DNA of 64,000 bases from an uncultured Candidatus Saccharibacteria bacterium (GCA_964368945.1 CAYJDM010000001.1:106849-170848); one strand, 5' to 3'. Positions 25,450 through 61,389 are shown, counted from the first letter of the stretch. Numbers and translations: made by a program. The notes: generated by a model from the letters alone, not told the origin.

Positions 25450-25549
25450 ATTTGTGGCGCCTATGCTTCTGCTTGGATATCTGAGGCCGATTAAGGCATG
25501 CACAGCAGGGATTACGTAGTCGCGGTTTGCTAATAAATATGTAGGGGAA

Positions 25550-25577
25550 AGTATACCTATTTTGAGGGGTTTTGCAA
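25550..25577 (-). promoter_or_regulatory. putative sigma70-type promoter of rpsA
   Basis: On the minus strand: TTGCAA, a 16-nt spacer, then TATACT; roughly 100-nt leader before the start codon. Confidence 0.4.
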
Positions 25578-25581
25578 TATA

Positions 25582-25943
25582 AATAAAATGCACTCGCAGA
25601 ATCCGGAGATTCGTACGAGTGCGGGTTTTATGGTGTCGAACAAGCCGGCCTTCGCCCGTATTATCCAGGTATCAGCACTATGGAAGTGCTAGGAACCCTT
25701 CAACGATGACGGTCTAGTTACCTTGTCTTCATATACCGACCTTTATTCTTGATCGGAGCTTGTCAGTTTTGCCACCATTTAACCGCTGTCCAACCGTTAG
25801 GTTGGTTTCAGGACCTATGAATGATCCTGTGGTTCAGCGCCTCAGTCAGGTTTCCCTGTTGAGGCTACCGGAAGTAGGGGCAGGATACGAGTACCTTAAA
25901 CTCGCCCCGCCGTACTTCGGCTATGTAGGGTACTTTCATTAAC
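25582..25943 (-). ncRNA. candidate structured ncRNA of about 360 nt, class unresolved (RNase P RNA is one possibility)
   Basis: GC-rich, ORF-free block between an AT-rich sigma70-like promoter (TTGACA-17-TATCAT) and an intrinsic terminator (gcactcg...cgagtgc plus a U-run); several clean hairpins (ccaaccgttaggttgg, agcactatggaagtgct, cgagtaccttaaactcg); weak resemblance to the RNase P P4/CR-V element (gaaggccggcuug). Confidence 0.4.
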
Positions 25944-25950
25944 TATGTAT

Positions 25951-25979
25951 ATGATATCACATATACATATATATGTCAA
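25951..25979 (-). promoter_or_regulatory. putative sigma70-type promoter driving the candidate ncRNA
   Basis: Minus strand: TTGACA (25979-25974), a 17-nt spacer, TATCAT (25956-25951). Confidence 0.4.
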
Positions 25980-26024
25980 GTACATAAAAAGCCTTATTTT
26001 GGCCATGACATATAAAAAGCAAAC

Positions 26025-26050
26025 GGCGCTGTCCCGTGAGGGACAGCGCC
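26025..26050 (-). terminator. intrinsic terminator of the 26083-26535 gene
   Basis: Stem ggcgctgtcc/ggacagcgcc followed on the minus strand by a T-rich tract. Confidence 0.55.
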
Positions 26051-26082
26051 TGAAGTGTCTGTTGGTTGTGTTGGTTTTGCGG

Positions 26083-26535
26083 CTAAGCTGCTGGGCGCCG
26101 CTTGCGCGTCGCTTTCGCATTGCCATAGGATCCGCCTCCAGTCGGCGGATTGCCGAAGTCGACGTAGGCTATGCTGTCACCGCGTCGGGCATGGGTAGGC
26201 ATCGTGAAATCCCGAGGAACGGGGTTCTTTGGCGCTTCGCGGATATTTTTCCAGCGAACATAATAGGCAAGCGGCACGATGAACGGGGCGATTCGGACGA
26301 AATAATGAGCCACCGCTGAGGAGTACCATTCTTTCTGCTGATAGAGGCCCCATGCGCAGCAGGCATAGAGGCCTGCCAGCATGATGATCGTCAGTATCGG
26401 AGCCGCGATGTCATCGGAGCCGCCGCGCTTCTGCGAAATGGCTGTCACCTCGTAAGGTTTAAGGCCGATATGCGCGAGAACGAACGTGAGAACTATGAAT
26501 AATATGGGTAGTACGATTGTCGGGTTGAGGTTCAC
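26083..26535 (-). CDS. hypothetical membrane protein
   Basis: 150 aa with 3-4 predicted TM helices and a basic C-terminus. Confidence 0.45.
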   Translation of the reverse strand: MNLNPTIVLPILFIVLTFVLAHIGLKPYEVTAISQKRGGSDDIAAPILTIIMLAGLYACCAWGLYQQKEWYSSAVAHYFVRIAPFIVPLAYYVRWKNIREAPKNPVPRDFTMPTHARRGDSIAYVDFGNPPTGGGSYGNAKATRKRRPAA

Positions 26536-45347: not shown

Positions 45348-45482
45348 GATAAGGCTCGATTTGGGAGACGATATATATTGACATTCCATATATATTATAG
45401 TATAATATATATGGAATAGCGCGTTGCAGTATGCGCATATATTTCCACGTCACATCAGTCCAATCACCAACACAGATAATCC

Positions 45483-45830
45483 ATGAACCAGAACCAAAAT
45501 AAAAACGACGCCTTTGACATTGCGCAACAGCGGGCAAGCGAATACACCAAGGACAAACTTAAGGAGGCCGGCAACAAAACGTTTTCCTTCTATGTATATC
45601 TTTTGCTCGCAGGCTTGCTGACTTTTTGCGGATTCAGTCTGTTCACCGAAAACATGCTGGCTTCGCTGTTTGTTACGGTTGCCGTCCTTTCGGCAATTTC
45701 TGCAATCACCGAATATACAGAAAAAACGACGATGAAGGCGAGCCATGAGATTGTGGACCTGTTGCAGGCCCTGATCTCAGCGAGTCGGTCCGCCGATGGG
45801 CCGTCGAATCAATCACCGACCCAGGCTTGA
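45483..45830 (+). CDS. small two-TM membrane protein, hypothetical
   Basis: 115-aa ORF with two hydrophobic helices. Confidence 0.4.
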   Translation: MNQNQNKNDAFDIAQQRASEYTKDKLKEAGNKTFSFYVYLLLAGLLTFCGFSLFTENMLASLFVTVAVLSAISAITEYTEKTTMKASHEIVDLLQALISASRSADGPSNQSPTQA

Positions 45831-61026: not shown

Positions 61027-61389
61027 ATATTAATTAATGACAGACCACCCAACCTTGCATAGCTATGCAGAACAACCGAAACGTAGTGTGGTCGCGTCAG
61101 CTCTTAGCAAGAAGGTCTTTCAGCGATAGGATATGGATTAATAGCCCAGATTGGGCTATTATGAGCATTAACAACTTAATATTGCTGACCTAACCCTATG
61201 GCCTCAAACCCTAGGCATGGTCAAAATCCGCTAAAGTGTAAAAACCTCCTCGTCAGGAGTCACTTTAGCGGTCGTATCTGGAAACGGGTACGGGTTGAGC
61301 CGAAAGGTTCAATCGCAACTGGCGGGGAGATTTTTGCTATCTCACTTTTGCCATTTATCATAAAAGCAAAACAAAACCGCTAAAGTTTT

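Follow-up and report, generated by a model that had tools for sequence, protein, structure and literature searches.

Directly upstream of rpsA (25449-24286, minus strand; ribosomal protein S1) in a 64,000-nucleotide stretch of DNA from an uncultured bacterium (GCA_964368945.1, CAYJDM010000001.1:106849-170848; hereafter the 64-kb window) lies a module, running from 25944 to 25581 on the minus strand, that we regard with a probability of roughly 0.6 as a free-standing gene for a structured noncoding RNA (ncRNA) of about 360 nucleotides (nt). In this reading the RNA, which we call type A, represents a family that Rfam does not contain, is an accessory, non-housekeeping RNA with a role in trans, and was recently acquired by or swapped into its present slot. 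The module has the general features of an ncRNA gene: it has its own promoter and its own terminator, it contains no conserved open reading frame (ORF) save one of 24 codons, and a comparison of two distinct sequences points to constraint on both sequence and secondary structure. At the level of sequence comparison we consider it established that the unit is independent, running from promoter to terminator, that it encodes a structured RNA on which selection acts, and that it is accessory and not universal at the locus. Comparison of the S1 protein assigns the genome to the Candidate Phyla Radiation (CPR, or Patescibacteria), class Paceibacteria ('Taylorbacteria'-like metagenome-assembled genomes). 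All positions are those of the window unless a relative, designated by an L number, is named.

The RNA promoter, TTGACA-17-TATCAT, is of the sigma-70 type, agrees with the consensus at 11 of 12 positions and is extended by a TG; the predicted start site is at about 25944/25943. Promoters of this quality are scarce, with only four sites of at least 11/12 on both strands of the window, and only two of these four also carrying the TG (0.07 expected from shuffles); the other three stand directly before ordinary ORFs. At the far end the terminator stem GCACTCG...CGAGTGC (25622-25590) is followed by ATTTTATTT (25589-25581); it was found by reading and by a separate scan, a simple scan missing loops of more than 8 nt. 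The original prediction, made from the sequence alone, had described a near-consensus sigma-70 promoter and an intrinsic terminator; the promoter stands as described, as do the stem and T-tract, but the terminator ends 12 nt, not 13, before the rpsA -35 box TTGCAA (25577), which the T-tract abuts. It had also noted a spacer of about 630 bp devoid of credible ORFs, and the 633 nt between the rpsA start (25449) and the stop of the next ORF (26083) indeed contain none: an antisense ORF of 60 amino acids (aa) is frameshifted in the relative L082, and only a 24-codon small ORF (sORF) on the sense strand survives that comparison.

The predicted transcript of 364 nt has a minimum free energy (MFE) of -140.6 kcal/mol, against -100.5 +/- 5.5 for dinucleotide shuffles (z = -7.3), and none of 100 shuffles was as stable, in keeping with the multiple hairpins seen originally. 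The GC enrichment claimed for the locus does not hold, the GC fraction being 0.490 in the RNA, 0.484 in the window and 0.46 in the whole spacer. A consensus fold of the RNA and its counterpart in L082 has 83 pairs in 11 helices, arranged as a single-stranded leader, two hairpins (H1 and H2), a three-way junction and a 3' domain (Table 1). The 3' domain is closed by helices H6 (25784-25773 with 25635-25624) and H7 (25764-25757 with 25646-25639) and contains conserved internal loops, AA/AA and GCAAAACU/UCG.

Homologs were found through look-ups of neighbouring genes and one degenerate-pattern scan of metagenomes. Identical contigs occur in two Logan runs (L081 and L087; runs ERR4405440 and ERR4405441), and there is one diverged version, which two ENA assemblies share (L082 in ERZ724535 and L091, of identical sequence, in ERZ724509); the scan, which used a purine/pyrimidine-coded 26-mer, returned one true match (L091) and six chance matches. 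Identity between L082 and the window is 90.5% over 2.9 kb and 89% over the RNA. With third-codon positions of three flanking genes as the neutral benchmark (137/707 differences, 0.194), the first 123 nt, comprising leader, H1 and H2, differ at only three positions (0.024; P = 1.5e-8), the closing stems at 4 of 50 (P = 0.024) and the terminator at 0 of 42, whereas a sub-domain within the 3' domain (25735-25647) differs at 32 of 89 (0.36), above the neutral rate (P = 2e-4). Ten pairs of the consensus fold vary and all ten are still paired, eight through one-sided changes and two through double compensatory ones; the last two are both in H7 (C-G to U-A and U-G to G-C), and in the three-way junction the loops vary freely while three stem changes all keep pairing. 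Since the consensus fold was fitted to both sequences, the test was rerun on the structure predicted from the window alone, of which the 46 L082 substitutions break 10 pairs, compared with 17.9 expected from random placement of the same types of change (P = 0.0016), and all 10 broken pairs lie in the variable sub-domain. We take this substitution pattern as evidence of constraint, not as proof for each helix. The covariation check proposed with the original prediction yields the two double compensatory pairs, while formal covariation statistics have no power because only two distinct sequences are available; the proposal itself, of a promoter- and terminator-delimited structured ncRNA gene, is borne out by the fold stability, the purifying selection and the structure-preserving substitutions in this 90%-identical relative.

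Downstream of the terminator rpsA has a promoter of its own, which is conserved in relatives without the RNA, and a 5' leader with a covarying nested-helix motif of the form ...UACAUAUUUAUUAGCAA...GUAAUCCCYGCYGUG...UCCAAGCRGAAGC..., the order of its parts being ...AUUUAUUAGCAA, outer helix, GUAAUCCCYGCYGUG, a variable insert, UCCAAGCRGAAGC and the 3' strand of the outer helix. The motif is also found upstream of rpsA in L002-L018, L083 and L096-L105, has no match in Rfam, and is probably an S1 autoregulatory element specific to this Paceibacteria clade. Because rpsA has this conserved promoter and covarying leader downstream, the RNA is a separate upstream unit. The alternative raised at the outset, that the locus is merely a long 5' leader of rpsA, is accordingly disfavoured, and we rejected the RNA as this clade's rpsA leader, as it lies upstream of the conserved rpsA promoter and the leader is kept in relatives that lack the RNA. 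Known S1 autoregulatory leaders likewise lie upstream of rpsA and are structured, but unlike them the candidate ends in a strong terminator, precedes the rpsA promoter and is absent from most relatives. A 9-mer common to the RNA and the rpsA leader, CCCTACATA, is not significant (24% of shuffles), and only its TACATA is conserved in relatives.

The RNA has a narrow distribution. Searches of the rpsA locus with nhmmer and sensitive blastn did not find it in any of 80 species-level GTDB relatives (S1 66-86% identical), which also lack the neighbouring small ORF and in which about 200-300 nt separate the gene for a metallo-beta-lactamase (MBL) fold hydrolase from rpsA; nor is type A present at the rpsA locus of L083, L097, L100, L102 or L103. 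A covariance model of the 5' domain (R1) had no match over 638 kb or in six further loci, three exact conserved blocks had none in viral contigs, and phages and plasmids, searched with blastn 'distant', yielded nothing beyond a chance match to the AT-rich promoter. A sub-clade whose S1 is at least 90% identical carries a small, fast-evolving membrane ORF, and it is between the terminator of this ORF and the rpsA promoter that the content of the locus varies: the slot holds type A in the window and L082, whereas of the genomes with S1 93-94% identical two, L096 and L098, have a second kind of module with a strong promoter (type B) and others have nothing (Table 1). Local alignment shows the two type B copies to be homologs (z = 5.5), and neither matches an Rfam family; their bodies were judged not to be homologous to that of type A (z = 2.1 and 1.3, and no match by nhmmer or covariance model). 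The distribution on the rpsA tree, ((L083[-], L098[B]), (L096[B], (window[A], L082[A]))) with L097[-] outside, suggests that the ancestor of the clade probably had type B, which L083 has since lost and which gave way to type A in the lineage of the window. The two kinds of promoter are alike beyond the hexamers, with TAC before TTGACA and ATATGTG. before TAT.AT, which hints that the promoter was kept while the transcribed body changed; the shared stretch is too short to test. As a separate observation, gaps of 0.7-2.3 kb free of ORFs of at least 100 aa occur upstream of rpsA in the more distant relatives L043, L073, L063, L071, L052, L076, L062, L059, L016 and L017, and contain no Rfam family at gathering score.

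The membrane ORF bordering the slot (26535-26083, minus strand) has 150 codons and is followed by a strong terminator of its own. Its homologs, of 150-185 aa, are in L082, L083, L096 and L098, and there are uncalled versions in L097 (2387-2809) and L100 (2213-2710). Because its differences from L082 are distributed 15/9/39 over the three codon positions, we read it as a real gene under purifying selection, even though its protein is 27-85% identical between genomes with S1 93-94% identical. It has no match in Pfam, NCBIfam, PADLOC or PHROGs, and a collection of 5.8 billion proteins holds only three clusters of it.

The original prediction had suggested RNase P RNA, on the grounds of size and a weak match to the P4/CR-V element. 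RNase P RNAs of the CPR are often diverged and missed at default thresholds, and in 10 of 35 circular CPR genomes the RF00010 threshold had to drop to 5 bits (Lui et al. 2021, PMC8172020); for this reason we tested the possibility directly. At gathering score no Rfam family matches the RNA locus, and models of RNase P (types A and B, RF00010 and RF00011), transfer-messenger RNA (tmRNA, RF00023), signal recognition particle (SRP) RNA and 6S RNA, run at E<=10 on 801 nt and on 362 nt, gave no match; the 362-nt search has a reporting floor of about 14 bits, and the 5-bit floor of Lui et al. (PMC8172020) lies below it. The superficial strings GAAAGU(A)CC and GGCUU are present, but neither CR-I (GAGGAAAGUCC...) nor CR-V (ACAGAAnnnGGCUUA) is matched within three mismatches inside 25582-25945, and across the window near-matches to CR-V number 52 where 44 are expected by chance. 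The supposed 3' strand of P4, GGCUUG, pairs not with the 5' GAAAGU but with CAAGCU at about nt 182-189, and this helix is CAAGUG/CACUUG in L082, two double compensatory changes; pairing to GAAAGU reaches at most 5 bp in the window, and in L082 the changes G300->C and G301->A break it while the leader is unchanged. The consensus fold has neither a P1 joining the ends nor a P3, its first 24 nt being unpaired, the GAAAGU string follows the start site directly, leaving no P2/P3 stack ahead of CR-I, and GGUAA is not conserved in L082. The likeness to type A RNase P RNA (RF00010), including the diverged CPR forms (PMC8172020), is thus one of length (about 330-400 nt), of multi-domain folding and of a stand-alone gene with an intrinsic terminator in a CPR genome with atypical RNase P RNAs; the conserved S-domain motifs, P1, P3 and P4 are lacking, at the rpsA locus the nearest relatives carry either an unrelated RNA or none, and the conserved core block has a single metagenome match. 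With no model match, CR-I and CR-V absent and the P4 pairing broken in L082, we rejected RNase P RNA, and even a highly diverged CPR form is exceedingly improbable.

Other known RNAs were considered and set aside in the same way. ARAGORN finds no tmRNA in the window and there is no Rfam match, in line with the initial opinion that tmRNA was unlikely. For 6S and SRP RNA (RF00013, RF00169, RF01854) there is no model match, and the predicted fold is multi-branched and not a rod with a central bubble. An omega-RNA (IS200/605), a retron msr-msd and a bridge RNA were rejected because no transposase, TnpB/IscB, reverse transcriptase or recombinase is adjacent and the RNA is single-copy in the window; neither HEARO nor any other Rfam family matches the RNA locus at E<=10. 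The template repeat of a diversity-generating retroelement was dropped, the RNA matching no coding region in the window. CsrB-like enrichment of GGA/AAGG, which was judged by eye only, was also dropped, these motifs not being conserved in L082.

Several quite different explanations of the locus have to be weighed against a free-standing trans-acting RNA. The orientation and position of the module, co-directed with and immediately upstream of rpsA, would suit a cis-acting leader or attenuator, in which upstream transcription passes a regulated terminator into rpsA and the RNA serves as sensor and expression platform for S1; type B modules are arranged alike, and the interrupted terminator U-tract (AUUUUAUUU) makes some read-through plausible. 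Nevertheless, beyond the terminator rpsA has its own promoter and covarying leader, conserved in genomes that have the module and in those that lack it, the terminator hairpin shows high stability and no variation, the consensus fold offers no evident alternative anti-terminator pairing, and a slot that holds unrelated RNAs, or no module at all in several close relatives, is unexpected for the sensing leader of an essential gene; we therefore think a cis-acting role distinctly unlikely. Less probable still is that the transcript is an mRNA or dual-function RNA for the 24-aa peptide MKVPYIAEVRRGEFKVLVSCPYFR, with the 5' invariance reflecting coding constraint. The sORF begins with an AUG 6-7 nt from the predicted start site and its region is nearly invariant, but it has no Shine-Dalgarno sequence and is buried in the 21-bp H1 hairpin, its sole substitution is non-synonymous (Pro->Ser) and yet preserves the base pair (G-C to G-U), conservation runs well past its stop through H2 and the closing stems, and an ORF of 24 codons after a first AUG is expected by chance about one time in three.

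A more serious competitor, which we nonetheless consider unlikely, is that the RNA belongs to an exchangeable or mobile cassette, either as its cargo or as what is left of it; it could, for example, be a non-autonomous element, or an RNA component of a conflict or host-interaction system linked to the membrane ORF. Presence and absence at fixed boundaries are clean, type B gave way to the unrelated type A within about 10% rpsA DNA divergence, the adjacent ORF is hypervariable, one sub-domain of the RNA exceeds the neutral rate, and there are TA-rich palindromes at the promoter. On the other hand the RNA is present once in the window and has no terminal repeats or target duplications, no transposase, integrase, reverse transcriptase or defence gene is nearby, viral contigs, phages and plasmids hold no matches, and L083 has the ORF without any RNA. 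Finally, the locus might be non-functional, a fortuitously structured piece of spacer DNA behind a chance promoter. The narrow distribution and the target searches, which gave no result, would fit this, yet it is very hard to reconcile with purifying selection at P = 1.5e-8, pair-preserving substitutions at P = 0.002, a fold with z = -7.3 and a promoter of a quality otherwise seen in the window only before real genes, and it is a highly improbable explanation.

We therefore favor a free-standing trans-acting RNA. The RNA would be transcribed as its own unit, and the invariant single-stranded leader, H1 and H2 and the conserved internal loops would form a surface binding a partner, either protein or RNA; the 24-nt leader would be the most obvious site of interaction, and the hypervariable sub-domain would be either unconstrained or specificity-determining. 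Because sister genomes hold type B or nothing in the slot, the gene would be a recent arrival, whether by acquisition or by a swap, and recombination through the conserved flanks would be the simplest route. In its size, its tight multi-domain fold, its GAAA tetraloop and its conserved internal loops the RNA may resemble protein-binding or scaffold RNAs more closely than typical base-pairing small RNAs (sRNAs).

A number of points weigh against this interpretation. The complementarity that the leader shows to 61 translation-start regions of the window is equalled by 14% of shuffled leaders and so is not significant, and duplex tests, which are crude, gave nothing significant with either the membrane-ORF mRNA or the rpsA leader; as these window tests found no target, it is anatomy alone that suggests a role in trans. 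Transcription may read through from the RNA gene into rpsA. The 24-codon sORF is intact in both sequences. There are only two distinct sequences, leaving the shuffle control for covariation powerless (132/500), and absence in relatives means absence at the rpsA locus and from one degenerate-pattern metagenome scan. The narrow distribution, together with the failure to find a target, bounds what can be claimed.

As to its affinities, the RNA is in our view a new family within a known kind of feature, bacterial ncRNA genes that stand on their own, and among these it belongs with the large, ornate orphans. With OLE, ROOL, GOLLD, raiA and LOOT it shares an intergenic, ORF-less, large and highly structured nature, a GNRA tetraloop, and conserved internal loops or junctions beside variable hairpins; unlike them it matches none of their models and consists of two distinct sequences in one genus, while those classes each number tens to thousands of members and extend across genera. 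We know of no description of a hypervariable sub-domain or of slot-wise replacement for the ornate classes. Rapid turnover of genes in conserved intergenic slots is a feature of trans-encoded sRNAs in enterobacteria and cyanobacteria, and the candidate is like these in having its own promoter, a Rho-independent terminator, a conserved single-stranded 5' segment as a possible seed, and a lineage-restricted presence with unrelated RNA genes in syntenic spacers. It is, however, far larger and tighter than typical base-pairing sRNAs (about 360 nt, z = -7.3) and no target complementarity was found; no chaperone is known from this lineage. A bolder and doubtful proposal is that the slot is a dedicated, exchangeable 'RNA-gene slot' of this Paceibacteria genus, in which strongly promoted structured RNAs of the unrelated types A (about 360 nt) and B (about 220-370 nt) are swapped within about 10% DNA divergence. 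If so, the pairing in type A of a nearly invariant scaffold with a sub-domain that outpaces synonymous sites would fit an undescribed class of diversifying RNA determinants, for instance ones with a part in phage or host conflict or in episymbiont-host specificity, and not ordinary regulatory sRNAs.

Table 1. Coordinates of the RNA gene, its parts, the adjoining features and the contents of the slot in relatives. Differences are those between the window and L082; nt numbers count from the 5' end of the RNA.
Feature	Coordinates	Strand	Basis or remark
RNA module, promoter to terminator	25979-25581	-	Candidate ncRNA gene
-35 hexamer TTGACA	25974..25979	-	11/12 promoter match; identical in L082
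Extended -10 TGaTATCAT (TATCAT 25956-25951, TG 25959-25958)	25951..25959	-	Sequence; identical in L082
Imperfect TA-rich palindrome TATGTATA-N10-TATACATA	25944..25969 (region 25944-25975)	.	Read from sequence; covers -10 box and likely start
5' single-stranded leader, nt 1-24	25922..25945	-	Unpaired in consensus fold; 1/24 differences vs 0.194 neutral
24-codon sORF MKVPYIAEVRRGEFKVLVSCPYFR in leader and H1	25864..25938	-	Intact in L082, one Pro->Ser
H1, irregular 21-bp hairpin, nt 25-79	25867..25921	-	1/55 differences (P=1e-4), single change G-C to G-U
H2, 10-bp hairpin capped by a GAAA tetraloop and interrupted by an internal loop, nt 81-107	25839..25865	-	1/27 differences, C-G to U-G
Three-way junction, nt 108-161: closing helix H3, hairpins H4 and H5	25785..25838	-	Consensus fold
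3' domain closed by long-range H6 and H7	25624..25784	-	Closing stems 4/50 differences
Hypervariable sub-domain in 3' domain, nt ~211-299	25647..25735	-	32/89 differences including indels
Intrinsic terminator, 33-nt compound hairpin and T-tract AUUUUAUUU	25581..25622	-	Own scan and sequence; 42/42 identical in L082
rpsA promoter TTGCAA-16-TATACT	25550..25577	-	Conserved in relatives without the RNA
rpsA 5' leader, conserved nested-helix motif	25450..25549	-	14 pairs, 8 double compensatory, 15 sequences
Small membrane ORF and terminator, upstream boundary of RNA module	26025..26535	-	ORF 26535-26083, terminator 26050-26025
Slot content type A (candidate RNA)	Window, L082
Slot content type B	L096 2410-2810		TTGACA-17-TAATAT, ~366 nt, z = -3.5
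Slot content type B	L098 2577-2832		TTGACA-16-TATGAT, ~222 nt, z = -4.1
Slot empty	L083, L097, L100/L103		ORF terminator abuts rpsA promoter

The TA-rich palindrome at the RNA promoter is a possible operator. A comparable palindrome (TTCCATATATAT...ATATATATGGAA) surrounds another strong promoter at about 45380-45415, so that such palindromes overlap the -10 regions in two of the strongest promoters of the window, and similar ones are inserted in the variable part of the rpsA leaders of L002, L100 and L101; such palindromes might represent either an operator common to these sites or a small repeat element. The sole perfect 12/12 promoter in the window drives a small predicted membrane ORF of 115 aa at 45483-45830 (plus strand), which is followed by a strong terminator.

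The gene neighbourhood of the RNA is a housekeeping one (gyrA, the MBL-fold hydrolase, rpsA, pth and signal peptidase) with the orphan membrane ORF among them, and searches with PADLOC, PHROGs and NCBIfam revealed no mobile-element or defence genes nearby. A replication origin at the locus was considered and dropped, there being no skew minimum and no other signal. Between the ORF terminator and the RNA promoter the window has a 27-bp segment (26009-26035, minus strand) that is missing from L082 and L091; with the direct repeat GCTTTTTAT at its flanks it looks like a small duplication or slippage indel. Elsewhere in the window a LOOT RNA (RF03000) is present at 61187-61314 on the plus strand (82.8 bits; gathering score 46.4), in a low-GC stretch (0.42-0.44) spanning about 56-62 kb.

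CPR bacteria have tiny genomes with very little non-coding DNA, and for that reason a strongly promoted, tightly folded and selected RNA of 360 nt is unlikely to be idle in so reduced a genome. It would be a new RNA family for a phylum-level group that is not yet routinely culturable; our searches of the literature turned up nothing on ncRNAs in Paceibacteria, and on CPR ncRNAs and LOOT nothing directly relevant save PMC8172020. The locus also warns against equating every plausible RNase P-like candidate from a CPR genome with rnpB, a point that matters because diverged CPR RNase P RNAs serve as a check of genome completeness (PMC8172020). More generally, slot-wise replacement and a sub-domain that changes faster than neutral sites suggest that RNA genes turn over rapidly in reduced genomes.

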